Shown: positions 11,901 to 38,974 of the stretch, piece after piece
Numbering within the stretch: the first letter of the stretch is position 1
Layout of the letters: every line of letters starts with the position of its first letter
Source: a virus
Lineage: Duplodnaviria > Caudoviricetes
IMG/VR virus record: IMGVR_UViG_3300027278_000012
Coordinates: 8,121-72,120 of that record
Reading direction: 5' to 3' (one strand)
DNA: 64,000 nt
Made by a program: the position numbers and the translations under genes
Notes under the pieces: model-generated
Told to the model about the DNA's origin: nothing
The model's database searches: none
What the model saw: only the letters and a program-made list of their open reading frames with translations

Positions 11901-14900
11901 TATTATTTTTAGAGAAGGAAACAAAGATGTTTTATTCAATCCTGAGAAACTCACAGGAAGTCAAGTATTTGATAAAGTGAGAGAGGATTATGAATCACGT
12001 GGAGCAATAACTGCATTAGGAGAAAAAAGATATAATGAACTTGTTAAAAGAACCATTGATTCAATAAGAACAAGAGGTATATCATTTAATGCAGAAGAAG
12101 TTGTATCTATAAATGATGAGAACGCTAATGGAAAAGAATATGCACAAGATACATTCTCTGTAGATTGGAAGAAACATTCTACAGGAGCACTTAAGTTCTT
12201 ACTATCTACACTAGCTGAAAGAAAAGCATTAAATCAAAATAATGTTCAAAAAGGAACACCATTAAAACCTGCAGAATTTAACTTCTCTAAGGAAGGATAT
12301 AAAGTATTAAACTTCAATAGAGTGTTTGCTACATTGTTAGATAGACTGCATGGTACAAATGATCCTGCTGAGTTCACTGAAAAATTCATACAACTTGCAA
12401 AAGAAGATTCAAACTATCTTCCTTTGTTTGTATCATTAGGTGGTAACCCAGTTACACATACATTTGATTTTGCTGATCCTAATAAATTTAAAGAATCAGA
12501 TTGGAAACTATTTATACAGTTCTTTAATACATTTACAAGACAAAAACCTGATGCATTGATTCAATACATCTCTGAAGAAGGAGATGTATATACAGGATCT
12601 GCAAACATATTTACAACAGTTAAAGCAACAGTTGATAGTTGGGTAGATAACATGAAGGTTATTGGAAAAGGTCCAGGTGGATTGATTAGTTATGATAAGG
12701 CTAATAAAGTTTATAAAATAGACACTACACTTAAAACAGGAATTAAATCTCTTCCTACCAAACAATATCAAGACATGTTAAGTTTCTTAGGTAAGATAGG
12801 TGTAGAGTTTCCTATTGGAACTTATCAAGCATTAACTAATAGAGAGATTATTGTAAAAGGAGAAACAACTACAGAGATAAAAGAATTTAATAAAGCTGTA
12901 GCTCAAATAAAAGCTTATTTAGGAAAGAATAATGAACTGATGACATTTGATGCTAAGAAATTAGACATTGGTGGTCCTCTTAGAACATTAGCTGGACTAT
13001 ATACTAGAGTGAACAATCCTAATCAAGACTCTACATATTTTGGTGTAGAGGGGCAACGTATTGGTTCATTCTCAGAAAATAATGCTCCTTCTTATTTTGA
13101 AAATACATTCAATGAATCAAAAACATTAACTGAGCTTTTAGAAAAAATGCCTCAGTTAAATGATGTATATTCTAGAGGAAGTGAAATATTAAAACCAGGT
13201 GGTCTATTCTTCAATAAAGATGGAGAAAGAATAGCTACAATATCTGTAGGATATATTCAAGGAAGTAAGAATGAACTTACAGGAAAAGATAAATCTACAG
13301 CTAAGTTAGCTAAAGGAGAAAGATTTGTGCAAGAGATGAATCAAAACATTAACGGTAACTATTATGTTCTTATTCCTGGAGATAGTTCAACAGAATGGAT
13401 GATGAACTTAGGTAATGTCATATCTATGGATGATGTTATGTCAGGAGATCATTGGGGTAAAGTGTATAGTATTTATAGTAACTATTTAACTGATGATATT
13501 AATTTAGCATTAGAGAATAGAAAACAAAATATATATCAAAGAGCCAGGTCTCAAGAACTTAGAATCATGAGAGATATTCTTCCTCAGAATATTGTTGAGG
13601 ACATTGAAGAAATGATTGAAAATATTAATTTAAATTTTGAAGATTATACTTATGATGATATACAAGATTATATTTCTGCTAACAAAAAAGAAATAGATGC
13701 TTCTGTAAAATCTTTTATAGAAGGAACATCAGAAGGAACATTTGATACATTAATTAACTCCAATCAAATAAGAATGGTGGGAGAAAATAAATATAGTCTT
13801 GATAAATTTGATACAGAGTTTTTGAAAAAGTATAATTTAAATGGACAAGTTTCACTTGATGAAGTGATGAATCTTATAAACTTCACTAACATTAATTATG
13901 CAATAAACAATCAAGAATATCACAAAATACTGTTTGGAGATCCTTATCAATTCAAAACTGAGAAAGGAAAACTAGATGAAACAAAACGTATCAAATCATT
14001 TCTTTCAGGAAGAAGAAGAACATTTGATCATCCAGATTATAATAACTTCTTAAAGACAACATATAATAATGTAGATGGTGTTGAGTTAGATGATAAGACA
14101 CCAGGATATCATGAGTACAAAGAATACGCTAACACTATTACATTTGATGATGTAGAGATTGTTGGTAGCACTGTAAATATAAATACTGATTATGCTAAAG
14201 TTAATGAGACAGATGCAATGTCTTGGTTAATGGATGCTACGCACAAAGAGATTGCACTTAAAGAAGGACAATGGAGTGATGAAGCTGAAGCTTTTCATCA
14301 ATGGCACATGGCTTATACAAGAAGAGCATTTGATAAAAAAGGAATTAAAGCATATACAAGTGAACAATTAAAAGCAAAAGATGCTAAATTGTTAGAATCT
14401 CCTATACCTAAGCACAAACTTGCTGTAAGAAAACCTATCATCTCTGGTAATAAAAACAATAAAACAGAATTAGATATTGTATTAGATAAGACATCACAGA
14501 TGCCTCTTTACTATCACATGGTTGAGGATACTAGTTTAGGAACAATATATGAGCAAATGTTTGATCAAAACATTGGTTATGGTATTGTTATATCTGGTAG
14601 AAAGGTAGGGTCTGAAGGAAATCATAATATATATGTAGATGGTAAAGTTAATACAGCTAAGTTTGAAAACATAGTAGAGGTTCCTTGGAAGATATATGGT
14701 ACACAAGTAGAAACTATGTCTGAAGGAGAAAAGACACAAACTAGAGGTTCTCAACCTACAAAGGTGGCTACTATGGATCTTTATGAAAATGGAGAACCAA
14801 TTGGTGATACTCCTGAAAGAAAAGAGGTTATTAGAAAAGCTGTTAAAAGACATGATGGTACTTTAGACATGCTTAATGAAAATGCATACAATGAGTTATT

Positions 14901-17900
14901 GAATAGACTTGGTGTTGTAGATCTTGGAGATACATATGCTCTTGAGAATAATCAAATCATATCAGAAACTCTTATGTATGAGATGATGAGAAGAGATCTT
15001 TCTGAGAATGCTAAAGATACAATTCAGCTAGATGAGAATGGTGAATTCCCAATACCATTTGAAGCATCTCCTTCTTATATACAGATTAAGAATATTCTTT
15101 ATTCTATGGTGAATAAAGCATTAATTTCTCCTGCAATGAGTGGAGCTCCACATGTACAGGCTCCTGTTACAATGTTTGAACAAGCTACAGAGGGAAGAAG
15201 TTTTGCTAGAAAGATTGATAACAAATGGGTTAAGATTACTAAAGCTCAATATAAAGCTCTTACAGAAGAAGAAAAGAAGGGTGTGATGCTTACAGACGAT
15301 ACACTTAAGTTCTATGAAGATAAAGATGGTAAACGCTATTGTGAAGTGTTACTTCCTCATTGGTTTAAGAATAAGTTTGGAAAGATGACAGATGACCAAA
15401 TTCTTAAGTATTTAGATACAGATGAAGGTAGAAAGATATTAACTGGTATAGGTTTTCGTATTCCTACACAAGCTCTTTCATCTATGGAAGTATTTAAAGT
15501 GAAAGGATTCCTTCCTCAATATATGGGCTATACAGTGATAGTTCCTTCTGAAATTACTACTAAAGCAGGATCGGATTTTGATATTGATAAATTGAACATG
15601 TACCTTAAATCTATATACACAGATAAAAATGGAAATGTTAAATTAGTTAAATGGTTAGGAACAGAACAAGCTACAAAAGATTTCTTCACTAAGGTGTATG
15701 ATGAATCAACAGAAAGAAAAGCTTTAAAGAAAGCAGAACTTATAGAAGCTGTTGATACATTGGTCTATGGACTAGATGATACAAAAGGATTAATAAAGAA
15801 ATATGGAGAATACATTCTATCTATACAAGATAAGTATGATGATCCTTTTGCATTTAGAGCTGAGATGGAAAAAGAGTTAGATAAACTAACTGATGATAAT
15901 ATAAATGCTGAATTGAGACAAGCTTATATAAATAATATGTATAAGAAATCTCTTGAGAATGAATACTATGATTCATTAGAAGAACTTCTTACACTTCCTG
16001 AAAACTTCAATAGATTAATTACACCTGTTGATGATGCAGGTCTTGAGAAAATTGCTGAGTTGTTAGATGAAAAAAGAGGATATAATGAATCAAATATAAA
16101 AGGAAGACTTATCAATAGAAACTTCATGACCAATATGCGTCATGCATTTATCACTGGTAAGAGATGGGTAGGTATTGCAGCTGTTAATATTACAAACCTT
16201 TCATTAAGACAGAAGAGTAAAGTGTATTTAGATCCTTCTAAGATTACATCTTTATCTGCAAGAGAACGTGAGTTTGTAGAAGACCTTGTAGGAAATATTA
16301 GCATAGTTCTTCCACATAATACATTAGATGTTGAAGGAAAAACATATGTTTCGTTATCTGGAACAAGAACAGCTGATCTTAAACAACTTATTTCACAAAG
16401 ACTATCTGGATATGCTACAGCATTTGTGGATATTGCTAACAAACCTTTCATCACTAAGATTATAAAAAGTGATACAGTGGTGTCTACATTTATGTTCTTA
16501 GAAGCTATTGGTGCTGGTAATACAGGAATCTATTTCTTAAACCAACCAATCATTGAGAAGTATTTAGAATACTTAGATAGTATTGGATCAAAGAGTGTTA
16601 TGGGAAAAGATAATCTTTCTTATATTAGAGATCAATTCCCTACAACAGAAAAAGCAATGAGAGATGCTAGAATATCTGTAGATCAATTATTAGATAACAT
16701 ACAAGAGTATAGTGAGAAAGGTGAATTTGATCAACGTAAAAATGCTGAGCAACAATTGATATTGAATGAATTCATTAAATACAAAATATTAGCAGATCAA
16801 TTATTTAGTTATACACAGTCTACAAACTATGATACAACAAGGTTTGGTAGTTCAGATGCTCTTCTTAAGAAAGAATGGGCTACATTCAACACTAGCAACT
16901 TTAACTTGATATCTAATGTAGATGAGGTGTTGGCTAATACATTTATAGGTAAACAAGCTGAACTTCTTTCTAAATCATTTGCATCCTTTGGTGCTATAAT
17001 GAAGACAGAACTTCCTGAGATAAAAGCATACACTATTGCTACATTGAAAAAATATGCTACAAGAAAATACATGTCATCTGATGATTATGAAAAGATAGCT
17101 AACTTAATCAAGAATTCTTTTGTAGATTATGTTATTCAGAATAATACAACTATATCTAACATGGTTGAACCTTTGCTTGTGAATTCTGAAACTGCAGTGG
17201 TTAATCAATTAGAACAAGCTAAGCAGAAGTATCCTAATATGCAGATACTAAAAGATCTTATTCCTGTACTAGGGAATAGAGATGGAAGTGCTAAGTCTAT
17301 ACAGCTTAAAGCAAATGTTAAAGATGCATATAGTGAGAACTTATATGTAGGTATGATGAGAGAGATGAGAGACATTCCAGAACTTAATAATCTGTATAAT
17401 AACATTGTCAATGTTGCTATATTACAAGGAGTGGGTCAATCTGCTATATCTATAAGAAACATTATTCCTGTAGAAGATTATGCAGCTAAGATTGCTCCTA
17501 TTATACAACAGCTTACACCAAACCCAACATTAGATGCTTTCGAGAATGGAATGTTTGAAAGAAACAATTTCACAAACAAAGATGTAATCACTGATTTCAC
17601 ACCATATGTGTACACACCAGAGCCTGATGAGAATGGACAATACAATGAACTAAGTATAAGAACTAATCCTAATACAGGAGAAGATGAATTAGTTCATTTC
17701 TTACCAGCATTTACATCAATGAAAGGAGTTTCTAAAACATCAAGAAGATTATTAATGTTAAGTGATAGATTTAATTCATTTCAGTTGTCTTCTGATTTCT
17801 TAAGAATACCTAAAGTGATCACTGATAAGAATAGTGATGATGGTAAGAAGGTTAATGTAATGACAGGAATAGAAGTTACAAAAGCTGACTATGCTAAAAT

Positions 17901-19077
17901 GAAACAAAAAGGTTCACAAGATCTTTATGATTCATATTATTATAAGAAGGTGTACACAACTAACAAAGATAAGTTTGGTAATCCTATTCCATTAACAACC
18001 ATTGGTGCTACTAAGCAAGGTGACCCTTTGACTAATTACTATTATAAACTAATCAATGTGTATGGAGATGGTAATAGAGCTGTAGAGTTTAATAAAGAGT
18101 TTGGCCCTTCTGTTATTGATAATGGATCAATGAGAATCAAGCAAGAGTTGAATGATCAAGATATTGTTAATCAATTTGCTTCACAGATTGCAGAAGAAGT
18201 TGTATCTTTACCAACAGAAGAAGAAATAGTTGCACCTACACAAATGATTGGAAAACCAAAAGGAGTAGAAGTTAAAGAAGGAATCTATGTAAACCAAGAA
18301 GCTTTGTCTAAAGATGAGCAACTTGAATTATTTGATTATCTAAAACCATTCTTAGAAGAACAAGCTGCTAAAACTAATAAAGGAGAAGCTGCTAGTAAAA
18401 TGATTGGATTAGGATTGAGATGGGATTATAAGTCAAACAATCCTGGAAAACAAGCTATGAATATTCCAGATGTTATCAATCCAGGAAACAAAACTAAATA
18501 TGGATACTATGATAGTTCTATTAACAATCAACCTTTGGCACCTATCACTCCTCGTTTTAGAGAGTTAATGCAAAAGGCTACAGGTGTAGATATGACTAAT
18601 TATGATGGTGCCATTATTAATCTTTATGAACCTAATAGTTTTATTAGTTCTCATAATGATGTAGATGAAAGTAGATCCGCAATTGGTTATCCTGTAATAG
18701 GAATTAACATTGGTGGTACAGGAAACTTCTCTATTGAATCAAGAGATGGTGCTCCTAAACAATTAAATCTTAAAGCAGGTGCAGGATATGTATTTGGTGT
18801 TGATGGTGTAAACAGAGAAGTTTATCATAGAACTTTTGCTAAACCTCAAGATAGTTTCTTACCAGAATTAACAACTAAATTAGATGGTAAAGCTTACGAA
18901 CCAGGTTCATATAGAGTGACAGTTACAATGAGAAGAGTATTGCCTTTAGAACTAGGTATGCCTAGTAAACCAACTATTATATCTACAGAAACTATAAGTG
19001 AAAAACCTGAAGGAATAACTCAAGAAGAATGGGATGGCTTATCTCAAGAAGAAAAGAATAAAATAAACGAATGTTAA
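5947..19077 (+). CDS. Virion-packaged DNA-dependent RNA polymerase polyprotein (crAss-like) with zincin HExxH motif and C-terminal AlkB-like 2OG-Fe(II) oxygenase domain
   Basis: GFRIPTQ at 15457 and GSDFDIDK catalytic loop (DFDID at 15574-15588); YHEIGH at 11461; NLY...HND...VYHR...YRVTVTMRR at about 18620-18940. Confidence 0.9.
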   Translation: MPDFDKNLQPIIESTKFPGFDLNVQEVRPQPMPDLLSGFGGGTSDHTEKDIYDILGQAQANSRQKGRGVRVMDAQLVANKRYDFFNPTIENYEDFASYGQSGWEKARNGVLKGTNLAGTTVLGGFGMLYGIGKSLFGSEHKLSSIWDNEIMQGLDKWNNKVDQEYLPNYYSEKETNADWYDRDNWMTTNFLFDKVIKNAGFAVGAVYSGNIANGVLGAAGAVIGESAMARAIAMESSQVFKAFAPLLKNTARAFSKAKNIEASEVLKKGITSIADVADQSSQIAKIAKITNQFNNFSDAARRTAIAAYSSGGEATFEALQTSNEHRTNLINNYKNTHGGVGPTGKDLSDIDNEVADVGRASFLGNMALLSITEYVQLPKLLGSSYAAERQASNSLLGKADDVLLDKGKYIAKEATTKFGKLYNRAAGVSRYVFDPKEGGQELGQYALQVGTQNYYKKSRETGAANMWTDGFVYGFVGTDEKGEDVGALTSKAGAEGGIIGAFTGGVMQARSTYATKKQAKTGTANFLNLLNDAPTFRDAFKDKLDSANRGIKLQEQQQDAVLSGDKLEAIDLRSDMAINYLSARIKYGRMDMVQDDIADLRQYSITEEGLASLKEQGLANINDTRESYQKRLDSFETMSKNIEQIYKATDLMYSGAILKDEKGDPVVSPDGKQLRKYSPHVIDKMVYSASKITDYDLRIPAVNASLIAAGVNTMDVLQSIILNNKPSREATDAALKQINELDIRSDLKDQLKADLSDVIELSLRRKLFLQEHADITKNPLNYEYNPEFEFGESEELDVKVEQQEKVKGKRKPLITEKELEVNKEYSLKEPLRKEGSTLQLAPKITVLSQTLGGEFEVRLPNGQIKFLTPTEFKEYNISDEDNTSEEMGDILDKAIDTVLDKEEYADYKDQLEIAGAENVFSKREFINDLDDQKLIDAIEKEFNAKTKDLLAQREKERIAKEKLAATKETLDKELEKLAPTGGSVETVNIVAGEIIGTEDKRPDVSIVFLKTISPSEEEKNKETNNIPHIKRARTFLNNLKFFKNRNKIKAIIVTPNNAEALGLKGIVQLSNNKLEFNEDGSVIDNLTKEETDVEMGFMAQVFITQTAEGDFFVNEKGEKLSKIGPGNPTILNDVVFQTMTSASLTTEGGYTKIRKGQEEKAEIALEAYKIFRADVFAQEGYTPYSFSISRGIPNQIVVNGVYEDNHMSDILGPNAEKIIAEHNGLIEVVTTGQVENNAELLSFNEGTALIRFGDLLDFANNKVLTNKQAQNVFAVIDAMAKDLIAKSSTAKAGRPDYGYITFLKNVLYFKFKGNPTTPSQISLDTKTMEFRIGDKSFDLFKIADNKQAITNALQDAFISVNNKTLAEGTSKKFTEYVTDKDGNLTKVVWTNYQSFLLSGKNPDGSKRSTGETPLITHTAKPTDNLNSYKQKYAFITDTGVLPYDRVPVKEVKPAPVATTPGVKKIGKYEVNNGKEETLEVGSGPVLFTATLSPEGVIDVDMKDNDTIEALSTNQGKLNEFEQKLTSGASKEYKDAYEKLSNEEQVKLFLSTAIKQMLEKEYATQLEAPVVEEVVQPIAPPEVVAQQDVEAKKADIENNDFVIKIKKIGQSYAGGKQFVNTKQTGKEFLEQVNYEMYGEKVQAEHLLYFKDKFDGALYDLINRGYKELTGKTFEEYDAELAALEGGEETNIGKEITAVAPFNKGTITGKIISVTENKAKKGLYSITLDNGERVSGSFEDNKFTWIQNEDTPSEKPYDPSKLKGRDDAPEFRMVGAADVSDRMTNAELEIFKQWHAEKVPFIPFEVLERMVNVNDTEEAWGVFENGVAKFVRGGLRGTEYHEIGHGIWTMLSTEEQEALLNEFRSKPGTFTDRQSGKKIEHIDATDTQAEERIWDDFSDFRLGKLPARSLGERVRRLFKMVMDFFKSFGSKPSLKDELFEAIEAGRFKETKLSKRAKTMAPKYRAIEGLTEEQTNNYINDMVVQASRIIFREGNKDVLFNPEKLTGSQVFDKVREDYESRGAITALGEKRYNELVKRTIDSIRTRGISFNAEEVVSINDENANGKEYAQDTFSVDWKKHSTGALKFLLSTLAERKALNQNNVQKGTPLKPAEFNFSKEGYKVLNFNRVFATLLDRLHGTNDPAEFTEKFIQLAKEDSNYLPLFVSLGGNPVTHTFDFADPNKFKESDWKLFIQFFNTFTRQKPDALIQYISEEGDVYTGSANIFTTVKATVDSWVDNMKVIGKGPGGLISYDKANKVYKIDTTLKTGIKSLPTKQYQDMLSFLGKIGVEFPIGTYQALTNREIIVKGETTTEIKEFNKAVAQIKAYLGKNNELMTFDAKKLDIGGPLRTLAGLYTRVNNPNQDSTYFGVEGQRIGSFSENNAPSYFENTFNESKTLTELLEKMPQLNDVYSRGSEILKPGGLFFNKDGERIATISVGYIQGSKNELTGKDKSTAKLAKGERFVQEMNQNINGNYYVLIPGDSSTEWMMNLGNVISMDDVMSGDHWGKVYSIYSNYLTDDINLALENRKQNIYQRARSQELRIMRDILPQNIVEDIEEMIENINLNFEDYTYDDIQDYISANKKEIDASVKSFIEGTSEGTFDTLINSNQIRMVGENKYSLDKFDTEFLKKYNLNGQVSLDEVMNLINFTNINYAINNQEYHKILFGDPYQFKTEKGKLDETKRIKSFLSGRRRTFDHPDYNNFLKTTYNNVDGVELDDKTPGYHEYKEYANTITFDDVEIVGSTVNINTDYAKVNETDAMSWLMDATHKEIALKEGQWSDEAEAFHQWHMAYTRRAFDKKGIKAYTSEQLKAKDAKLLESPIPKHKLAVRKPIISGNKNNKTELDIVLDKTSQMPLYYHMVEDTSLGTIYEQMFDQNIGYGIVISGRKVGSEGNHNIYVDGKVNTAKFENIVEVPWKIYGTQVETMSEGEKTQTRGSQPTKVATMDLYENGEPIGDTPERKEVIRKAVKRHDGTLDMLNENAYNELLNRLGVVDLGDTYALENNQIISETLMYEMMRRDLSENAKDTIQLDENGEFPIPFEASPSYIQIKNILYSMVNKALISPAMSGAPHVQAPVTMFEQATEGRSFARKIDNKWVKITKAQYKALTEEEKKGVMLTDDTLKFYEDKDGKRYCEVLLPHWFKNKFGKMTDDQILKYLDTDEGRKILTGIGFRIPTQALSSMEVFKVKGFLPQYMGYTVIVPSEITTKAGSDFDIDKLNMYLKSIYTDKNGNVKLVKWLGTEQATKDFFTKVYDESTERKALKKAELIEAVDTLVYGLDDTKGLIKKYGEYILSIQDKYDDPFAFRAEMEKELDKLTDDNINAELRQAYINNMYKKSLENEYYDSLEELLTLPENFNRLITPVDDAGLEKIAELLDEKRGYNESNIKGRLINRNFMTNMRHAFITGKRWVGIAAVNITNLSLRQKSKVYLDPSKITSLSAREREFVEDLVGNISIVLPHNTLDVEGKTYVSLSGTRTADLKQLISQRLSGYATAFVDIANKPFITKIIKSDTVVSTFMFLEAIGAGNTGIYFLNQPIIEKYLEYLDSIGSKSVMGKDNLSYIRDQFPTTEKAMRDARISVDQLLDNIQEYSEKGEFDQRKNAEQQLILNEFIKYKILADQLFSYTQSTNYDTTRFGSSDALLKKEWATFNTSNFNLISNVDEVLANTFIGKQAELLSKSFASFGAIMKTELPEIKAYTIATLKKYATRKYMSSDDYEKIANLIKNSFVDYVIQNNTTISNMVEPLLVNSETAVVNQLEQAKQKYPNMQILKDLIPVLGNRDGSAKSIQLKANVKDAYSENLYVGMMREMRDIPELNNLYNNIVNVAILQGVGQSAISIRNIIPVEDYAAKIAPIIQQLTPNPTLDAFENGMFERNNFTNKDVITDFTPYVYTPEPDENGQYNELSIRTNPNTGEDELVHFLPAFTSMKGVSKTSRRLLMLSDRFNSFQLSSDFLRIPKVITDKNSDDGKKVNVMTGIEVTKADYAKMKQKGSQDLYDSYYYKKVYTTNKDKFGNPIPLTTIGATKQGDPLTNYYYKLINVYGDGNRAVEFNKEFGPSVIDNGSMRIKQELNDQDIVNQFASQIAEEVVSLPTEEEIVAPTQMIGKPKGVEVKEGIYVNQEALSKDEQLELFDYLKPFLEEQAAKTNKGEAASKMIGLGLRWDYKSNNPGKQAMNIPDVINPGNKTKYGYYDSSINNQPLAPITPRFRELMQKATGVDMTNYDGAIINLYEPNSFISSHNDVDESRSAIGYPVIGINIGGTGNFSIESRDGAPKQLNLKAGAGYVFGVDGVNREVYHRTFAKPQDSFLPELTTKLDGKAYEPGSYRVTVTMRRVLPLELGMPSKPTIISTETISEKPEGITQEEWDGLSQEEKNKINEC

Positions 19078-27706: not shown

Positions 27707-27729
27707 AAAACCCTCTACATGAGGGTTTT
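27707..27729. terminator. Bidirectional intrinsic terminator
   Basis: AAAACCCTC-TACAT-GAGGGTTTT hairpin between convergent genes. Confidence 0.85.
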
Positions 27730-29811
27730 TATTTTTTCTATCACCATCTCTGGAGTTATACTAGTCTGACATTCAAACTGTCTATCTGTACCTTTGTGAA
27801 CAGGGCACCAATTCCAATCTCCTTTATCAAACTTATATTGTGGATCATTCCAACATCCATGGCATACATTTGTGTTAACTGGTCTATGGCATGAGAACTC
27901 ATGTTGTTTGTCAGTGAAATTACTGATCATTATCACTGGTACATCTAATCCCCAAGCTAACCAACTTAGTCCACTAGATAGTCCTATAAAGAATTCACTT
28001 TGTGTTATCCATTCTATTGTGCTCTCAATTGATTTGTCAAGTAATGCATCACAGTTGTCAAATGGATTGCTTTCTAGTGATACATTCTTCACTATATATC
28101 CTTGACCATGTAAGTAATTAATCACTTCTTGCCAGTTCTCTCTGGTCCAGAACTTACATCCAGCTGTACTATTTGTAGCTATTGTAACTAGTTTATAGTT
28201 TGCTTTAAGTCCTGAGTTATGTATTCTAGGTTTGATTTCTTTATAAGGAAGTCCTAGAATGTTTGTAGCTGTTTGCTGAAGAGGAATTGTATTAGGAAGA
28301 ACAGGTTCTTTATTATCATTATAGAACCAACCAATCTTATACATTGCATACAGATTATTAACTGTAGTTCCTGGTTCCACAAATTCTAACATTGGATATT
28401 CTTTTTCAAATAAGAAGTTCTTAAATGTACTTACAATAACTTCACAGTTATGTAGACATCTAAACTCTTCTACATAAGGCATCCAAGCTATAGTATCACC
28501 TAGAGATGAACTATCAAAAGCTATATACACTCTTCTGTTCTCTAGATTTAGTATGTTATTATACACTTCCACACCATCCTTATACACTATAGTTTGCCAT
28601 CTAGTAAAGTATTCTCTGTTAAGTCTTATCCAATGGTTGCACTTTATTGTATCATAATGAACTAATTTATCACTTTCTAGATCATAAAACTCTACATCAA
28701 ATGTGCTATTGCTAGTTCCTGTTATTTCAAGGAATGGTTGTCCAACAAAGTTTTGTATGATATTATAATCATTTATAGGCTTTTTGTTCGGAATAACGGA
28801 CATTGCTTTCTCATATAATGATATGTGATGTTTAGCAAAATCATCAGTTGTATTATTAGTTAGTATATGATAATTTGTATGATCTGTTAACATATCTTCT
28901 ACCTGACGTTTTAATTTTATAGGATTTAGAGTTGTAATATACCTAGTGAACATGTTCTTGTATTGAGGAAGATCTCTAGCAATAATCTTTTTACCATAAC
29001 TAATAGCTTCTCTTAATACTAATGGATTACATTCCCATGTACTATTAAACATGAATATATCAGCAGCCATTAGAAAATATTTAGCATCATCTCTTTCTCC
29101 CCATATCTTTACATTCTCAGGAAGATCTTTCATTAATGGTTTCCAATAGTCTTCAAAGTTACCAGCTTGATTACCTACAAAGTGAAACCCTATATTTGGC
29201 ATTTGTCTAGCTAATTCAAGCATCTCTCCTTGATTCTTTCCAGGAGTCCATAAACCAATGTTTACAACATGTTTCATCTTTAGATTCATACCAAGAGCTA
29301 TCTTAGCTTCATAACAGTTATCTTCTGACACTCTATAGTTATCAATGGGGAACTCAATCACTTCTCTATAACCATCTACATCTTTAAATGTATCTAAGTG
29401 ATAAGGACTGCAGAAAGCATATGCATCAGGTGTGAATATCTTCTCAGAAGGATTGAAAGAAACATCATGACATGTCTCAACTATTCTATATTTCCTATCA
29501 GGAGAATATAATCTTGTCACCATCTTAAGATCTAGTCTTTCAGACATCTCATCTATATGTATAATGTCTGGTTTAAACTCTTCCACCACCTTGAAGATTC
29601 TCATCTTATCTTCATTCAGTGTATATAAACCTGTGAGCTTTATAATTTCATCTCTCTGTACAACATAATCTTTGCTGTAACATTGATATTCTACCACTTG
29701 AATAGATACATTTGGCAGAGTTTGCAACGCTTGTATTCTCTTAAGAAGGAATGCAGGCATACCACCTGTAGATAGGTGAGGAGCAACAAATAATATTTTT
29801 AGTTTAGACAT
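27715..29811 (-). CDS. Two-domain glycosyltransferase: N-terminal GT4-like plus C-terminal TibC/AAH-like (autotransporter heptosyltransferase family) domain
   Basis: HLSTGGMP start and DIFMFNSTWECNPLVLREA (GT4); SSSLGDTIAWMPY, FIGLSSGLSWLAW and the four-Cys CHGCW...WCP...FEC iron-finger pattern. Confidence 0.8.
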   Translation of the reverse strand: MSKLKILFVAPHLSTGGMPAFLLKRIQALQTLPNVSIQVVEYQCYSKDYVVQRDEIIKLTGLYTLNEDKMRIFKVVEEFKPDIIHIDEMSERLDLKMVTRLYSPDRKYRIVETCHDVSFNPSEKIFTPDAYAFCSPYHLDTFKDVDGYREVIEFPIDNYRVSEDNCYEAKIALGMNLKMKHVVNIGLWTPGKNQGEMLELARQMPNIGFHFVGNQAGNFEDYWKPLMKDLPENVKIWGERDDAKYFLMAADIFMFNSTWECNPLVLREAISYGKKIIARDLPQYKNMFTRYITTLNPIKLKRQVEDMLTDHTNYHILTNNTTDDFAKHHISLYEKAMSVIPNKKPINDYNIIQNFVGQPFLEITGTSNSTFDVEFYDLESDKLVHYDTIKCNHWIRLNREYFTRWQTIVYKDGVEVYNNILNLENRRVYIAFDSSSLGDTIAWMPYVEEFRCLHNCEVIVSTFKNFLFEKEYPMLEFVEPGTTVNNLYAMYKIGWFYNDNKEPVLPNTIPLQQTATNILGLPYKEIKPRIHNSGLKANYKLVTIATNSTAGCKFWTRENWQEVINYLHGQGYIVKNVSLESNPFDNCDALLDKSIESTIEWITQSEFFIGLSSGLSWLAWGLDVPVIMISNFTDKQHEFSCHRPVNTNVCHGCWNDPQYKFDKGDWNWCPVHKGTDRQFECQTSITPEMVIEKIKTLM

Positions 29812-31213: not shown

Positions 31214-31632
31214 TGGTAACAAGTGCACAAGCTTTAAAGAAATACGGAGACCCAACTAAAGAATCTAGTATGACATTATGGGATGTACCAAAAGAATTAG
31301 AAATTGGTGTACTCCCTAAGAGATTGTATTGTAATAAAGATATGATCCTACCATTAACGAAAGCTTTTAAAAATCTTATATCTACAGGATGTGTTAAAGA
31401 ATTAAAAACTTGGGATGGATGTTTCAATATAAGAAAGAAAAGAGGACTTGCATCAATGTCATTACATTCATGGGGAATAGCTATTGATGTAAACGCTGCA
31501 TGGAATGGATTAAACAAGGAGCCACAATTGAGTAAAGAGTTTGTTAATTGTTTTACATTAGCAGGATTTGATTGGGGTGGAACTTGGACTGGTAGGGTCG
31601 ATGGTATGCATTTTCAGTTAAAGACTATATAA
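31213..31632 (+). CDS. Endolysin, peptidase M15 family
   Basis: SLHSWGIAIDVN ... FDWGGTW ... DGMHFQL. Confidence 0.85.
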   Translation: MVTSAQALKKYGDPTKESSMTLWDVPKELEIGVLPKRLYCNKDMILPLTKAFKNLISTGCVKELKTWDGCFNIRKKRGLASMSLHSWGIAIDVNAAWNGLNKEPQLSKEFVNCFTLAGFDWGGTWTGRVDGMHFQLKTI

Positions 31633-32153
31633 TGAAAAATAGAGAAGGTTATAGAGTATGTTCTTGTTGTAAGAAAGAACAAGAGCTTATTTCTACTAAC
31701 TTCTGTTCAGATAAAAACAGAAAATCTGGATTTTCTTATAGATGTAAAAAATGTGATGCTATTAAAAAAGATAATAGAAAAGAAAGATATAAAAAACTAT
31801 CTGAAGAACAGAAAGAAGTATATAAAAGTAAAAATAGAAAATATACATCGGAAGGTTTGGGAAGAGCAACTTCACTAATATGTGCTTATAGAAAAGTAGA
31901 TAAGAAAAAAGGACAAGTTTGTAATTTAGATAGAGAGTTTATGATGACTCAAATTTTTAATAAGTCTTGTATTTACTGCAAGTCTATACAAAATATAGGT
32001 TGTGATAGAATTGATAACACTATAGGACATATAAAAACAAATGTAGTACCTTGTTGCAGAATTTGTAATACAACAAGAATGAATAATTTTTCACATGAAG
32101 AAATGTTTTTATTAGGAGAAGTTATTCAGAAGATTAATAAAAACAAAAAATAA
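31632..32153 (+). mobile_element. Free-standing HNH-type homing endonuclease
   Basis: N-terminal CxxC...CxxC finger and CIYC...CDRIDNTIGHIKTNVVPCCRICN core. Confidence 0.75.
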
Positions 32154-32608
32154 TGAGAAGATGTAATGATGTATATGAAATAGTAACTGTTTACTATCCC
32201 ACTGGCTGTGTTAATACAACTAGTACACCTACATCAACTACAACAACTACATTACCACCAACTACTACCACAACAAGTAGTTCCACTAGCACTAGCACAA
32301 GTACATCAACATCTACATCAACAAGTAGTACAACTACAACCACAACAACAAGTAATTATAATTCATATAATTATCAAGCACAATATTATGATTGTGATAC
32401 ATGTGTTAATATTGGAGGACTATCTTTAGCTAATATTGAACCTTTAACAGTTGGAAAGTGGTATAATTATACTAATAGTATTACTAACATTTCAAGAAAA
32501 GTACAAATAGTTACATATCTAGGACCTAGTTTAAGTTCACCTAATACTATTATATTAGATTCAACTAAACAAGATACATGTGGTGCACTGCCACCATGTC
32601 CAGAATAA
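32153..32608 (+). CDS. Mucin-like Thr/Ser-rich protein with Cys-containing C-terminal domain
   Basis: About 45-residue T/S tract; TAATG coupling. Confidence 0.65.
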   Translation: MRRCNDVYEIVTVYYPTGCVNTTSTPTSTTTTTLPPTTTTTSSSTSTSTSTSTSTSTSSTTTTTTTSNYNSYNYQAQYYDCDTCVNIGGLSLANIEPLTVGKWYNYTNSITNISRKVQIVTYLGPSLSSPNTIILDSTKQDTCGALPPCPE

Positions 32609-32621
32609 ATAATTTAAAACC

Positions 32622-32759
32622 ATGGCAAAACAAACCAATTCAGTACAAAAGAGAGTGAAGGTTAAAATAAGTAGACCAGGCATTCATTCTAAAAACAAAA
32701 CATCTAAACTTAAATCTTCCAAGAATTACAAAAAAAGTTATTCTGGGCAAGGTAGATAA
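32622..32759 (+). CDS. Small basic protein (45 aa, ...SKNYKKSYSGQGR)
   Basis: Read by hand, below the track cutoff; fills the gap between genes. Confidence 0.6.
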   Translation: MAKQTNSVQKRVKVKISRPGIHSKNKTSKLKSSKNYKKSYSGQGR

Positions 32760-32814
32760 CTTTTTTGATTATTTTAATTCATTAACAATCATGTATGTTT
32801 ACATAAATTATTCA

Positions 32815-32822
32815 TATTTTTG
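32815..32822 (+). promoter_or_regulatory. -7 box TATTTTTG
   Basis: Exact TAnnTTTG about 25 nt before ATG 32847. Confidence 0.45.
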
Positions 32823-32846
32823 TAACTACCAAACAAACAATCAATT

Positions 32847-32990
32847 ATGGCAATACCAGCTAAACAAGTCGGACAATCAGCGGAAGCTAATCTATTGTGG
32901 CAAATATCTAAGCAGTTGGAACTTTTAATTAAAGTGACAGCAGCTGGTGTAATCACTACCACCACTACTACAACTACAGCAGCACCATAA
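32847..32990 (+). CDS. 47-aa protein: MAIPxKQ leader plus poly-Thr tail
   Basis: MAIPAKQVGQSAEANLLWQISKQLELLIKVTAAGVITTTTTTTTAAP; paralogous to the N-terminus of the next gene. Confidence 0.75.
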   Translation: MAIPAKQVGQSAEANLLWQISKQLELLIKVTAAGVITTTTTTTTAAP

Positions 32991-33000
32991 TAATATAAAA

Positions 33001-33726
33001 ATGGCTATACCAAGTAAACAAATAGGTGGAAGTATAAACTATAATCTTCTTTGGCAGATATCTAAGCAATTAGAAAGATTAATTGAAGTTAGATCAAATG
33101 TTACTACATCTACTACTAGCACATCAACAAGTACAACCACTAGCACAACTACATTAGATCCTAATCTTATACCTATAGGTACCCAAATATGGACTAATAG
33201 AAACCTTGATGTTACAACATATAGAAATGGTGATGTGATTCCTCAAGTAACAGATCCAACTGCTTGGGGAGCATTAACAACTGGTGCCTGGTGTTATTAC
33301 AACAATGACCCTACAAATAATGCAGTTTATGGTAAATTATACAATTGGTATGCTGTTAACGATGCAAGAGGATTAGCACCTTTAGGCTATCATATACCTT
33401 TAAATAGTGAGTGGACAACATTGATTTCATTTTTAGGAGGGACAAGTATTGCAGGAGGGAAAATGAAATCAACAGGAACGTCACTTTGGCTAAGTCCTAA
33501 TACTAATGCAACAAACTCTAGCGGTTTTACAGGTCTTCCTGGAGGTTATCGCGTCAGTGATGGTAGTATATTCTACGGCATTGGTGAGACCGTTTACTGG
33601 TGGACTTTTTCGCAGTCCAATATTATAAACGCAGTGACCAGGTTCCTGGTTTACTATGCTGGTGCTATTAGTGTTACCACCTACGATAAGAAAGGTGGTT
33701 TCCCAGTAAGATTAATAAAAGATTAA
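33001..33726 (+). CDS. MAIPxKQ leader, Thr/Ser linker and Fibrobacter succinogenes major domain (Fib_succ_major/FISUMP)
   Basis: IGTQIWTNRNLDVTTYRNGD ... YGKLYNWYAV ... GFTGLPGGYR ... GFPVRLIKD. Confidence 0.85.
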   Translation: MAIPSKQIGGSINYNLLWQISKQLERLIEVRSNVTTSTTSTSTSTTTSTTTLDPNLIPIGTQIWTNRNLDVTTYRNGDVIPQVTDPTAWGALTTGAWCYYNNDPTNNAVYGKLYNWYAVNDARGLAPLGYHIPLNSEWTTLISFLGGTSIAGGKMKSTGTSLWLSPNTNATNSSGFTGLPGGYRVSDGSIFYGIGETVYWWTFSQSNIINAVTRFLVYYAGAISVTTYDKKGGFPVRLIKD

Positions 33727-33748
33727 AAACATAATAAACCAACTACAT

Positions 33749-34765
33749 ATGAAAGATTTAAAATTTGTACAAAGCTGCCCAAGTGATGTATATTACACAT
33801 GGCAAGTGCATTTATGGCTTGAGAGCTTAAGAAACATTGGACATAGTGATAAAGCTATATCAGTGATATTCACACCCAAGGGGAGAGAGAATAGAGACAA
33901 ATGGAAACAGATAGAAGACCTCTATCCAGAATCAGAGTTTCATTATTATAATGATGAAGACAATTTAAATCAACTGTTAGGAATATACATTCCTGTACTA
34001 AGACCATATGTACTTTGGAAACATTTTAAAGCTAATCCAGAACTAAGTGAGAAAGCAATATTCTATTGTGATTCAGATATTCTATTCACTAAAGATTTTA
34101 ATGTAGACAAGTTCTTAGATGATGAGGTTAATTATCTATCTGATACAAACAGCTACATCAATGCTACATATTTTGATAGTAAAGAAAGAGATGTTCTCCC
34201 AGAGAAGCTAGAAGCATACAAAACAAGAGATGTTCTTGGAGAAATAGCTAGTGTTATTGGTATAGATAGAGCAACATGTGAAGCTAACAACCTACACTCA
34301 GGAGGAGCACAATATCTACTAAAGAATGTAGATGGTGAGTTCTGGAGTAAGGTGATGAATGATTGCATTCTTATTAGAACCTATTTACAAACAGTGAATA
34401 GAGAATATTTTAAAGATGAGAATACAGGTTATCAATCATGGTGTGCAGATATGTGGGCTGTTCTTTGGAACTTATGGTTTAGAGAACAAGAAACAAAAGT
34501 GGTTCCTGAACTAGCATTTACCTGGGCAACAGATCCTATATCTAAACTAGACAGTCATACAATCTTTCATAATGCAGGAATAACAGGAGTATCAATGAAT
34601 GGATATCCTTGTTTCTACAAAGGAAAATATCATCAAGGGACTGATCCTACAAAGGATCCACATTTAGATGATGTATTAAATAACATAGAATCACAGAAGT
34701 ATTGCACATGGTTCTATGCAAACGAACTTAACAACATAAAACAAAAATATAAACTTAATTATTAA
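33749..34765 (+). CDS. GT-A glycosyltransferase resembling plant peptidyl-Ser/Hyp O-glycosyltransferases (GT96/GT95-like)
   Basis: YYTWQVHLWLES, YIPVLRPY, YCDSDILF (DxD), SGGAQY, SWCADMWAV follow the motif order of SGT1/HPAT. Confidence 0.6.
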   Translation: MKDLKFVQSCPSDVYYTWQVHLWLESLRNIGHSDKAISVIFTPKGRENRDKWKQIEDLYPESEFHYYNDEDNLNQLLGIYIPVLRPYVLWKHFKANPELSEKAIFYCDSDILFTKDFNVDKFLDDEVNYLSDTNSYINATYFDSKERDVLPEKLEAYKTRDVLGEIASVIGIDRATCEANNLHSGGAQYLLKNVDGEFWSKVMNDCILIRTYLQTVNREYFKDENTGYQSWCADMWAVLWNLWFREQETKVVPELAFTWATDPISKLDSHTIFHNAGITGVSMNGYPCFYKGKYHQGTDPTKDPHLDDVLNNIESQKYCTWFYANELNNIKQKYKLNY

Positions 34766-34782
34766 TAACAAAAACAATTATC

Positions 34783-34992
34783 ATGAGTAACAAGAGAGAC
34801 CTTAAGGCCTATGTAAGATTCGATGGATCTGGCAGAATTGTAGCAGGAAGTTTAGTTCTAAGAAGAAGTAAACCAAAGGTTGGTAAGTGGCAAGAAATTA
34901 CAGCATATGAATGTTGTAACTATACACCTACCACTACCACCACAACAACAGCAGCTCCTACAACAACTACAACAACAACCCCTGCACCTTAA
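34783..34992 (+). CDS. Small protein with poly-Thr/Pro tail
   Basis: 69 aa ending CCNYTPTTTTTTTAAPTTTTTTTPAP. Confidence 0.7.
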   Translation: MSNKRDLKAYVRFDGSGRIVAGSLVLRRSKPKVGKWQEITAYECCNYTPTTTTTTTAAPTTTTTTTPAP

Positions 34993-35002
34993 TATTTAAA
35001 TT

Positions 35003-35416
35003 ATGGCAATGAAATCACTATTCCCAGATGAAATGATGGGAGATAAAGGCTCTAGTCTTACATTAGAGACTATTGCAGGAAAGCTAACTTATTTTCATGA
35101 GCAGCTACATTTAACTCATTGGCAAACTAAATCATATGCAGAACATCAAGCTACTGGAGCATTGTATGATTATGTGCACGATTTCAAAGATGGATTGATA
35201 GAGAAGATTATGGGATATACAGGTAAAAGACCTGGTCCATATAAAATAGAACCTCTTATAAACTGTACAGGAATGCAATGTGCATCAGATCTTTTATCTT
35301 TTGCTTCAGAGTTAAAAGCATATGGTGAAAAGAATTCCTATCATGATGTATGTAATCTAGCAGATTCATTATCTGGAGAAGCAGCTAAAACTAAATACCT
35401 ATTAACACTGTCTTAA
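35003..35416 (+). CDS. Ferritin-like protein (DUF5856-like)
   Basis: LHLTHWQTKSYAEHQA...DGLIE...YLLTL pattern. Confidence 0.65.
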   Translation: MAMKSLFPDEMMGDKGSSLTLETIAGKLTYFHEQLHLTHWQTKSYAEHQATGALYDYVHDFKDGLIEKIMGYTGKRPGPYKIEPLINCTGMQCASDLLSFASELKAYGEKNSYHDVCNLADSLSGEAAKTKYLLTLS

Positions 35417-36069: not shown

Positions 36070-36273
36070 ATGAGAATATACGAACCAAAGAATAGAATAG
36101 ATGTTATAACACCTAAGGGAGAGGGGGTAATATGGTTAGTGACTGATTATGGTCATGAAACTGATACTATCTATACAATTATTATTAATACAACAGGTGA
36201 GATGTGGCAATACGCTCACAAAGATATAATCGTTAAACCTAATATAACATTTAAACGCTATGGCAAAGATTAA
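36070..36273 (+). CDS. Hypothetical protein (SH3-like small beta fold possible)
   Basis: 67-aa ORF, VITPKGEGVIW...GEMW. Confidence 0.55.
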   Translation: MRIYEPKNRIDVITPKGEGVIWLVTDYGHETDTIYTIIINTTGEMWQYAHKDIIVKPNITFKRYGKD

Positions 36274-36694
36274 AAAAGCACAAACAGGTAAAAAATTAAC
36301 TGTTTCTAAAACTAGACAAGTAGCAGATTCTTTAGATAATGAAGCAGCTAGAAAAACTAGATTGATGTATAGACAAACTGAACAAAATAAAGGACAAGCT
36401 ACAGATGAATCTGTAAAAAACTACAAGTCATCATCAAAAGATAAATCTAATGCAGATCGTTATAGAAAACTAGCAGATGCAGCTGAAAAGAAAAATAAAA
36501 TGAAAAATGGTGGAAGTCTAACTGGACTTAAAGCCTCCAACAAAAGAGTTGGTCCTGTAGATCCTAAAGGAGCATACACAAAGGTACAAAAGAAAACATT
36601 AGCTGGTGCTAAAGGAAAAGCTTCTCTTACCAAAGACAAACAACTTGGTGCTACAAAAATGGCTAAATGTGGAACTAAAATGTCTAAGAAATAA
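36260..36694 (+). CDS. Small Lys-rich protein (KKAQTG family)
   Basis: Starts MAKIKKAQTG; highly basic. Confidence 0.7.
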   Translation: MAKIKKAQTGKKLTVSKTRQVADSLDNEAARKTRLMYRQTEQNKGQATDESVKNYKSSSKDKSNADRYRKLADAAEKKNKMKNGGSLTGLKASNKRVGPVDPKGAYTKVQKKTLAGAKGKASLTKDKQLGATKMAKCGTKMSKK

Positions 36695-37044
36695 TGGCTG
36701 CTATTAAGAAAGCGCAGACTGGTAAGCGTGTAGATCCTAAAAAATATTTAGAAGAATCTCGTAAGAGAGTTGAGACTGTTACAGATTCTGCTAGAAAAGC
36801 TGAAACACGTAAAGGTATCAATACTTATGACGATTACTTAAAGTCTAAAGTTAAAGAAAAATCTAAAGCTAAATCAGGAGTTACTATAGCCAAAGATGGT
36901 ATGTGGATGCAAAAAGCTGCAGCATCTATCAAGAAGCGTGGTACTGCTGGTAAATGTACACCTATCACTAAACCTGGTTGTACTGGTAAGGCCAAGACTC
37001 TTGCTAAAACTTTCAAAAAAATTGCTAAGAAAAATAAGAAATAA
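36694..37044 (+). CDS. Small Lys-rich protein (KKAQTG family)
   Basis: Starts MAAIKKAQTG; C-terminal KCTPITKPGC. Confidence 0.7.
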   Translation: MAAIKKAQTGKRVDPKKYLEESRKRVETVTDSARKAETRKGINTYDDYLKSKVKEKSKAKSGVTIAKDGMWMQKAAASIKKRGTAGKCTPITKPGCTGKAKTLAKTFKKIAKKNKK

Positions 37045-37286
37045 TGGCAAAGAATATAACTAAGGTTCCTGATGGTCCTCTTATTAAGAAGACAGGAAAA
37101 TTCAAAGGAAGTACATTGAAAGCTGGTGGTATGATTAAACGTGCTGATGGTTCTTTTTCTAAACGTGGATTATGGGATAATTTGAGAAGCAAAGCAGCTC
37201 AGAATAAAAAAACTGGTGCAAAACCTAAAGCTCCTACTAAAGCAATGTTGACTCAGGAGAAAAAAATAAAGTCTAAAGGAAAATGA
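37044..37286 (+). CDS. Small Lys-rich protein
   Basis: KAGGMIKRADGSFSKRGLWDN; TAATG coupling. Confidence 0.65.
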   Translation: MAKNITKVPDGPLIKKTGKFKGSTLKAGGMIKRADGSFSKRGLWDNLRSKAAQNKKTGAKPKAPTKAMLTQEKKIKSKGK

Positions 37287-37906
37287 TATTAGATATTAGT
37301 AATGAGCATAAACAAAAATACTTTTCTCAGAAAGAGAAAGGAGGAGTTGTTTATAAAATCACTAATCAAATTGATGGTAAGTTCTATATAGGAAGTACAA
37401 ACAATTTGATAAAAAGATATTACACTCATATTAATCATATAAGAACTAGTAAATCTACATGTGTAAAACTAATTAGAGCAGTTAATAAGCATGGAGAAGA
37501 TAACTTCACATTTGAAATTTTATGTGAATGTTCTACTCAAGAAATACTAAAGACTGAACAAAGTTATATAGATAGTTTAAATCCTACTTATAACATTGCT
37601 AAGATTGCTGGAAGTAATCTTGGAATCAAAAGAACAGAAGAAGTTAAGCTTAAAAAATCTATATCTCAAAAAGAAAATTGGAAAGATGATGATTATAGAA
37701 GTAAGCATTTAAAAAATTTATCAAAGAATTGGAAAAGTGGAGCTTCTCATAGAATGGCTAAGCTTACAGAAAAACAAGTAATTGAAATTAAAAAACAATT
37801 AGCAAGTGGTCTTCTTCCTAAACAGGTAGCAGACAAACTTGAACTTAGTTATTACTCTATAAAAGATATTCATAGAGGAAAGACTTGGAAAAATATAAAT
37901 ATTTAA
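37283..37906 (+). mobile_element. Free-standing GIY-YIG homing endonuclease
   Basis: GVVYKITNQIDGKFYIGS...R..H...E...YN core plus NUMOD-like and HTH C-terminus. Confidence 0.85.
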
Positions 37907-37918
37907 AACTAAGAAATA

Positions 37919-38188
37919 ATGGCAACAGCAGCATGGACTCGTAAAGAAGGAAAGAATCCTTCTGGCGGATTAAACAAAAAGGGTGTAGCTTCATATAGAG
38001 CTGCTAATCCTGGTAGTAAATTAAAAATGGCTGTTACAACTAAACCTTCTAAACTTAAACCTGGAAGTAAGTCTGCTAACAGAAGAAAATCTTTTTGTGC
38101 TAGAATGGGTGGCGTAAAAGGACCTATGAAGAAACCCAGTGGTAAACCTACACGTAAAGCATTAGCATTAAAAAAATGGAACTGTTAA
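37919..38188 (+). CDS. DUF6321-like small basic phage protein
   Basis: WTRKEGKNPSGGLNKKG...RRKSFCARM...ALKKWNC. Confidence 0.7.
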   Translation: MATAAWTRKEGKNPSGGLNKKGVASYRAANPGSKLKMAVTTKPSKLKPGSKSANRRKSFCARMGGVKGPMKKPSGKPTRKALALKKWNC

Positions 38189-38252
38189 ACAAAAATGGGA
38201 AGCCTGGTCCTCCCCCTCCTCCTGGATTATAACAACTAAACAATAATATATT

Positions 38253-38813
38253 ATGGCAACAATAAAAAAAGCACAAAGCGGTGCTAAAACTACTAAAAAA
38301 CCTAAAACTGTTTCTCAAAGAATTGGAGACATAACATTAAGAGATGTTAAAAATGCTGGCGAAGATGCCTTGAATATTTCTACACTTGGAGGTTATAGTA
38401 AAGTTAAAAAAGCTCTTGGAGGTGAATATAAATATAAAAAAATAGGAGAAAAAAAGAACGGTGGTCCTGTCAAAGCTAAAAATGGTAAATCATTCCCTGA
38501 TCTTAATAAAGATGGAAAGGTTACAAAAGCAGACATCCTTAAAGGACGTGGTGTTATAGCTAAGAAAGGTGCTACAATTAAGAAAGCACAATCTGGTATT
38601 AATACATTATTACCTGGTGGGTATGCTCCTAAATCAAGAGAAGAAAGATACAACAACTATCCTAGTACAAAACCTAAACCTAAAGCTAAACCTAAAGCTA
38701 AATCTACTATTGAAGAAGCAACTCCTGAACAAGTAAAAAAATATGGAATGATGGGTTCACAACAGGCTAAATCAGGAGCTAAAATGAAAAAATGTAAAAC
38801 TGGTTGTAAATAA
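38253..38813 (+). CDS. Lys-rich protein (KKAQSG family) with an EF-hand/dockerin-like loop
   Basis: Two KKAQSG copies; FPDLNKDGKVTKADIL. Confidence 0.7.
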   Translation: MATIKKAQSGAKTTKKPKTVSQRIGDITLRDVKNAGEDALNISTLGGYSKVKKALGGEYKYKKIGEKKNGGPVKAKNGKSFPDLNKDGKVTKADILKGRGVIAKKGATIKKAQSGINTLLPGGYAPKSREERYNNYPSTKPKPKAKPKAKSTIEEATPEQVKKYGMMGSQQAKSGAKMKKCKTGCK

Positions 38814-38974
38814 TGACTTCTGGTAAAGCAAAGAAATCAGGAGCACCAAGAAAAGCTCCTAAGGTTGGAATTCCTAGAAAGGATAAACCTTTTTCAAAGA
38901 CTAAGTCAATGGATGATAAAGCTATTAGAACTTCTCCGCAACAACCAATGAAGCAAAAGAGATTATCAAAATAA
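38813..38974 (+). CDS. Small basic protein (53 aa)
   Basis: Read by hand: MTSGKAKKSGAPRKAPK...; TAATG overlap, ends just before the terminator. Confidence 0.6.
   Translation: MTSGKAKKSGAPRKAPKVGIPRKDKPFSKTKSMDDKAIRTSPQQPMKQKRLSK

Follow-up and report, generated by a model that had tools for sequence, protein, structure and literature searches.

Within a 64,000-nucleotide stretch of tailed-phage DNA (Duplodnaviria; Caudoviricetes), positions 8,121 to 72,120 of the IMG/VR virus record IMGVR_UViG_3300027278_000012 and here called the window, in whose numbering all positions are given, a plus-strand open reading frame at 33749..34765 starts with ATG and encodes 338 amino acids of what is, on its predicted structure, a glycosyltransferase (GT) of the GT-A fold. 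What does it glycosylate? The answer favoured here, at a probability of roughly 70%, is that this soluble enzyme with its DxD motif (D108-S-D110) acts directly on phage proteins, at the threonines and serines of their genetically encoded poly-Thr tracts. An earlier note, made from the letters of the window, had proposed direct transfer to Thr/Ser from the position of the gene between two poly-Thr genes, and direct action on Thr/Ser-rich protein tracts is now strongly indicated by comparative genomics. The record of which the window is part is 72,120 bp long, with an estimated completeness of 64%.

The reading frame is as the earlier note had it, and the motifs listed there occur in the same order (YYTWQ…LES, YIPVLRPY, FYCDSDILF, SGGAQY, FW..V..D and SWCADMW), coinciding with the most conserved columns (Y80, R85, D108, D110, G185, G186, W199 and D234) of a 70-sequence family alignment. 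Pfam (E<=1) and NCBIfam searches with the protein returned no family, searches of PDB sequences, whether by the protein or by the family profile, yielded noise only, and the one full-length profile match is to PHROG 4417, function unknown (E 1.7e-54, residues 5-331 against positions 2-292 of 293). An AlphaFold2 model from the 70-sequence alignment (predicted local distance difference test 96.7, predicted template modelling score 0.93) has a single Rossmann-like alpha/beta/alpha domain, and with this predicted model Foldseek gave a probability of 1.00 to glycogenin, alpha-1,3-galactosyltransferase, UGGT and XXYLT1. D108-S-D110 follows immediately on strand 103-107 and is invariant both in the 70 sequences and in a set of 101 from four genomic contexts, where S131, Y136, G186, Q188, Q229, F257, H274 (in HNAG) and K291 are invariant as well; Y80 is also listed among the invariant residues. 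In GT8 and GT6 enzymes the metal site is completed by a C-terminal His, a part for which H274 would here be a candidate. With a first strand that begins as early as residue 4 and no hydrophobic segment at its N-terminus, the enzyme should be soluble.

On the modelled structure, kinship with CAZy GT8 is limited to the fold. The Pfam GT8 model (PF01501) has no match on the query (E<=1) nor in five phage genomes with homologues, and sequence identity to the retaining GT-A enzymes of the GT8, GT77, GT24 and GT6 type (glycogenin, LgtC, GlyE, the Skp1 alpha-galactosyltransferase AgtA, UGGT and alpha3GalT) is 8-13%, the phage enzyme having extra helical insertions that bring it to 338 amino acids as against about 260 in those enzymes. 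The family to which it belongs is large, with 2741 matches, all unnamed, in a 90%-clustered collection and 758 clusters at 50% identity, and it extends to phages of lactic acid bacteria, enterococci, staphylococci, clostridia and Bacteroidota. Longer relatives carry additional domains by fusion (GT2, GT6, GT32-type and methyltransferase), in keeping with glycan assembly.

That poly-Thr genes flank the GT gene on both sides, as had been remarked, holds: one is upstream at 33001..33726 and one downstream at 34783..34992, and there are two more farther upstream (32153..32608 and 32847..32990). In a pattern search every run of at least 7 Thr codons in the 72-kb contig fell at 32330-34979, and the reversed-pattern control gave 0 over the same contig, so that the clustering of Thr runs around the GT gene is far beyond chance. 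The products of these four genes, all encoded on the plus strand and here called P1 to P4 in map order, are candidate acceptors. P1 (32153..32608, 151 amino acids) has a long N-terminal poly-Thr/Ser tract (32231-32353) followed by a small Cys-containing domain that is weakly similar to the domain of P4 (pairwise E 0.003). P2 (32847..32990, 47 amino acids) consists of an adaptor module and then only a TTTTTTTTAAP tail. P3 (33001..33726, 241 amino acids) has an N-terminal helical adaptor (MAIP.KQ…LLWQISKQLE), a poly-Ser/Thr linker (33103-33153) and a FISUMP/Fib_succ_major domain (Pfam PF09603, E 2.5e-40); the adaptor module is common to P2 and P3, with 73% identity over 30 amino acids, and in a close relative it bears a different cargo. 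P4 (34783..34992, 69 amino acids) joins a conserved 47-residue N-terminal domain to a C-terminal tail (34930-34980) of two Thr blocks ending in PAP. The tagged proteins of the window are small accessory ones; the contig does not include the head gene.

How constant is this association within the lineage of the window? Among 80 viral contigs with a GT 63-99% identical to that of the window, same-strand tracts lie within 1.5 kb of the GT gene in 79, the density being highest in the 1-kb bins that flank the gene, with zero tracts on the opposite strand. The most conserved partner is the P4-type mini-protein, encoded about 20 bp downstream of the GT gene in 76 of the 80 loci; the P2/P3 adaptor module is present in 74, and a P1-type gene in just 5. 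Tails carry one to three Thr blocks and usually end in PAP, AAP or VAP. Among phages whose GTs are 95-99% identical (loci L006, L008, L009 and L010, to be set beside 34783-34992 of the window), the 47-residue P4-type domain is near-identical and the tail varies from 1 to 3 Thr blocks, which suggests fast change in the length of the tag. Complete relatives have 7-20 tracts per genome, including those in a 781-residue virion structural protein and in a C-terminally tagged 369-residue protein encoded far from the GT gene, and the full-genome set of acceptors therefore probably exceeds the four genes seen here.

The association is also met far outside this lineage. In 13 cultured phages whose GT is 22-36% identical to that of the window, and whose hosts are Chryseobacterium, Enterococcus, Lactobacillus and relatives, Lactococcus, Staphylococcus, Clostridium and Arcanobacterium, Thr-rich tails are encoded directly upstream of the GT gene without exception, often on major head or tail proteins. 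By a strict poly-Thr definition the gene or genes just upstream contain runs in 11 of the 13, often at the extreme C-terminus of a major head, a major tail or a small protein; the other two, ENFP1 and LP65, were considered as exceptions and dropped as such, since both have Thr-rich C-terminal repeats, (APTTV)n and (TTTETQTQTQ)n. In siphophages the GT gene is placed between head and tail genes. Five complete small siphophages with the GT gave no GT2, GT1 or GT8 match, which leaves this family as their sole recognisable glycosyltransferase.

The closest approach to a natural experiment comes from Lacticaseibacillus siphophages, whose head proteins are identical up to the last residues and whose tail proteins are 90-96% identical (LfeSau differs), and for which presence of the GT was scored over whole genomes with positive controls. 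R9.1 and iLp84 have the GT, and both their head and their tail proteins end in tags of T7-9; PHROGs identifies the tagged pair of R9.1 as the major head protein (E 3e-90) and the major tail protein (E 1e-53). In iLp1308, CL1, CL2, R10.1 and R24.2, which lack the GT, neither protein is tagged, and the same is true of LfeSau, also GT-negative, whose tail protein is 54% identical and whose head protein differs. In JNU_P10, again GT-negative, the tail protein is untagged, its head protein being outside the fetched locus. Tags thus go with the GT in 2/2 cases and their absence with its absence in 7/7 (for JNU_P10 on the tail protein only).

A side observation on phages of Gram-positive hosts is that a small gene right before the GT gene has repeated T5-12 blocks with spacers of the VKP or VAP type: iLp84_8 (L185:3282-3659), Semele gp075 (L004:4655-5002), an unannotated gene of VFW (L087:8474-8629) and L088:9720-9926. 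The first two have a short N-terminal domain and the annotation 'major tail protein'. Such genes may encode dedicated glyco-decoration proteins.

Eighty loci in bacterial genomes give a further view of the family. The prophage-like ones among them show the tag pattern again, unlike a block of Sphingobacteriia/Chitinophagia chromosomes. In that block the GT domain is the N-terminal part of proteins of 450-670 amino acids, fused to a second domain, and its neighbours are Peptidase_C39-ABC exporters (28 loci), VKOR/thioredoxin proteins, a radical-SAM enzyme and, in 14 loci, small peptides in which a Bacteroidota double-glycine leader is followed by a Ser/Thr-rich segment and then a Cys-rich core. 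Examples are L119:1994-10716, L155:1311-12350 and L111:2562-7746, with about 45 more (L109-L166), from chromosomes of Pedobacter, Sphingobacterium, Chitinophaga, Mucilaginibacter and Elizabethkingia. Judged by gene content this layout is that of a modified-peptide, bacteriocin-like cluster, which is a further pointer to Ser/Thr residues of a ribosomally made polypeptide as acceptors; the Sphingobacteriia loci, at one point considered as exceptions to the tag rule, were dropped from that role as belonging to a separate peptide-maturation context. Glycocins are glycosylated bacteriocins made by SunS-type GT2 enzymes. The resemblance to them is that the chromosomal long forms of the present family adjoin C39-ABC exporters, thiol-disulfide oxidoreductases and Cys-rich precursors with GG leaders; the differences are that the GT family here is not GT2 and that the context is that of the bacterial relatives, not of the window's phage gene. 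A literature search for a glycosylated ribosomally synthesized and post-translationally modified peptide of Bacteroidota found none described, and from their gene arrangement the clusters look like an undescribed class of such peptides, one to which these relatives of the phage enzyme would be the pointer.

If the favoured answer is right, events would run as follows. After infection, in the cytoplasm of the infected cell, the soluble enzyme would bind a nucleotide-sugar by way of the DxD motif, a metal and H274/K291, and would itself initiate by moving the sugar onto the hydroxyls of Thr (and Ser) in extended poly-Thr tracts, probably by retaining chemistry and so in alpha linkage. The acceptors in this phage would be P1-P4, which are modular in that an adaptor or small domain is joined to a poly-Thr tract and optionally to cargo such as FISUMP; in other phages the same enzyme family would serve the C-terminal poly-Thr tags of major head and tail proteins. 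The outcome would be a mucin-like brush of glycans on virion-associated proteins.

Several considerations weigh against this. Glycosylation of the tagged proteins and activity of the family's enzymes are here predictions from genes and models. PHROGs assigns no function to P1-P4, and that they are in the virion is our inference. As the GT-negative Lacticaseibacillus phages are closely related, their seven genomes count as few independent losses. Host enzymes could contribute. In addition the structural neighbours include the glycan extenders LgtC and GlyE, both GT8 enzymes and among the top ones, so that the fold alone does not tell whether the acceptor is a protein or a glycan. This last point leads to the alternative which survives best, namely that the 338-residue enzyme extends a glycan whose first sugar is put on Thr by another enzyme, of the host or of the phage. 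There is a phage candidate: a gene on the minus strand at 27715..29811, 4 kb away, encodes a two-domain glycosyltransferase of 697 amino acids (phrog_2170) with an N-terminal GT4-like (GT-B) half and a C-terminal half that exceeds the NCBIfam equivalog cut-off of TIGR04414 (269 bits against 200; residues 368-695 on positions 27-373 of 374), the model for Aah/TibC autotransporter O-heptosyltransferases, a known protein Ser-glycosylating family. A phage copy of that family is unusual in itself, and by its domains the protein is possibly a second protein-glycosylation enzyme or a glycan extender; it could also be the initiator in this phage. The fusion of homologues to further GT domains is likewise in keeping with an extending role. 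However, the 697-residue gene is present in 29 of the 54 lineage loci with sufficient upstream DNA and missing from the other 25, which retain the GT and the tags, and the five complete siphophages that do without another GT2, GT1 or GT8 match nevertheless have tagged head or tail proteins. Extension as the role of the 338-residue enzyme is accordingly judged unlikely.

Is the enzyme, as the earlier note had it, a phage homologue of the plant peptidyl-serine and hydroxyproline (Hyp) O-glycosyltransferases of GT95 (HPAT) and GT96 (SGT1)? Of that claim the glycosyltransferase part stands, with GT-A fold and DxD, and the AlphaFold and Foldseek check which it had proposed bears this out, with matches to the four enzymes named above; homology to GT95 is weakly supported. 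HPAT is the most recurrent Pfam match among relatives, in 2 of 70 and 3 of 106 at E about 0.012, all below the cut-off of 23.9 bits, and, as a lead only, it is carried by 22 of 30 named ESM-Atlas neighbour clusters at shares of 10-58%. GT95 has been predicted to be GT-A-like (PMC8476585), and GT95 and GT96 have been described as related (PMC8012813). On such sequence matches a distant kinship with GT95 among retaining-type GT-A enzymes is plausible, membership not being implied by it. That the enzyme is a true member of GT95/GT96, sharing their specific active site and peptide recognition, is distinctly unlikely, as every sequence falls short of the HPAT cut-off: the model (PF23452) matches neither the query (E<=1) nor the contig (E<=10), nor any of ten short relatives scanned singly, and it is silent in five phage and five bacterial genomes with homologues, this last being weakly informative in that the controls were also without HPAT. 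The plant enzymes, moreover, are type II Golgi membrane proteins whose acceptors are Hyp or the Ser of Ser-Hyp4, and the phage enzyme is soluble, lacks an N-terminal anchor and has Thr runs as its likely acceptors; what the two would have in common is peptide-directed O-glycosylation, for the phage enzyme a proposal, on repetitive, extended sequence. Nor is the family of the phage enzyme centred on plants: its members in phages and bacteria run to thousands.

Very unlikely is the idea that the acceptor is something other than protein, whether a polymer of the host cell wall, a lipid or phage DNA, and that poly-Thr is a plain flexible linker travelling along. Modification of DNA and of the host surface is indeed what phage glycosyltransferases are chiefly known for (PMC12619734), and glycosylation of the tags is a prediction from genes, but both of those roles fit poorly with the joint gain or loss of tag and enzyme in near-identical phages, the location of the gene between head and tail genes in siphophages, the occurrence of the family in peptide-maturation clusters and the want of a membrane segment.

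Returning to direct glycosylation of the tracts, a wider picture can be sketched that is tentative and, taken whole, doubtful: a portable system of two parts would pair a genetically encoded poly-Thr tag with a single cytoplasmic GT-A enzyme, of an unnamed family, that is dedicated to it. Phages from three or more bacterial phyla would pick up and shed this module, using it to coat head, tail and accessory proteins with sugar; Bacteroidota would have taken over the enzyme for making glycosylated ribosomal peptides; and among prokaryotes and viruses the family would be the sister of the plant extensin glycosyltransferases GT95/GT96. What of this has precedent? In the serine-rich repeat adhesins of Gram-positive bacteria the initiating enzyme, GtfA/B, is GT-B. 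A GT8-type enzyme such as GlyE then follows, and that glycosylation, also cytoplasmic, differs in that its substrates are exported adhesins, not phage proteins. Nearer is the virion O-glycosylation of the mycobacteriophages Che8, Rita and others, which involves phage-encoded GTs and has its glycans on capsid and tail-tube subunits, at their C-terminal ends (Freeman et al. 2023, cited in PMC11256854 and PMC12619734); measured cases of virion glycosylation are so far confined to mycobacteriophages (PMC11256854, PMC12619734). Relatives of the present enzyme adjoin C-terminally tagged head and tail proteins, and glycosylation of these tags would be the parallel. The differences are the GT family, here an unnamed and probably different one, the homopolymeric Thr tag as proposed acceptor, hosts among Bacteroidota, Bacillota and Actinomycetota in place of mycobacteria, and, in the window, tagged proteins that are small accessory ones and not head or tail subunits. 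That phage enzymes glycosylate proteins at the C-termini of capsid and tail subunits is already known, from mycobacteriophages; in the literature searched, neither the present family nor phage poly-Thr tags as glycosylation sites are described.

If the proposal is true, phage particles with a sugar coat are widespread, and a gene of this GT family together with poly-Thr tails is a simple signature by which to predict them from sequence, with a bearing on phage stability, adsorption and mucus binding, on immune recognition in phage therapy and on dairy-phage biology. The pairing of a short homopolymer tag with one soluble enzyme that reads it would, besides, be attractive for engineering the glycosylation of proteins in the cytoplasm.

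Some other features of the window deserve brief mention. It is AT-rich (about 32% GC) and includes tail-fibre, lysis, rIIA/rIIB and homing-endonuclease genes; a megablast comparison of 20 kb of it with cultured phages gave no match. Downstream of P4, a plus-strand gene at 35003..35416 encodes a DUF5856 protein of 137 amino acids (PHROG 858, annotated 'starvation-inducible transcriptional regulator'), which is the downstream neighbour in 73 of the 80 lineage loci. Between the endolysin gene and that for P1 is an endonuclease VII/HNH-like gene (31632-32153, plus strand, 173 amino acids); none of 80 related loci has an equivalent of it, and it is thus probably a recent mobile insertion. At 5947-19077 on the plus strand there is one open reading frame of 4376 amino acids, the next being of 1559 and 957 (a collagen-like tail fibre). 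Finally, 36260-38974, also on the plus strand, is occupied by a series of small, strongly basic, Lys-rich proteins (36260..36694, 36694..37044, 37044..37286, 37919..38188, 38253..38813 and 38813..38974), split by a GIY-YIG homing endonuclease gene at 37283-37906, and the proteins that begin at 36260, 36694 and 38253 have in common the start M(A)xIKKAQ(T/S)G.
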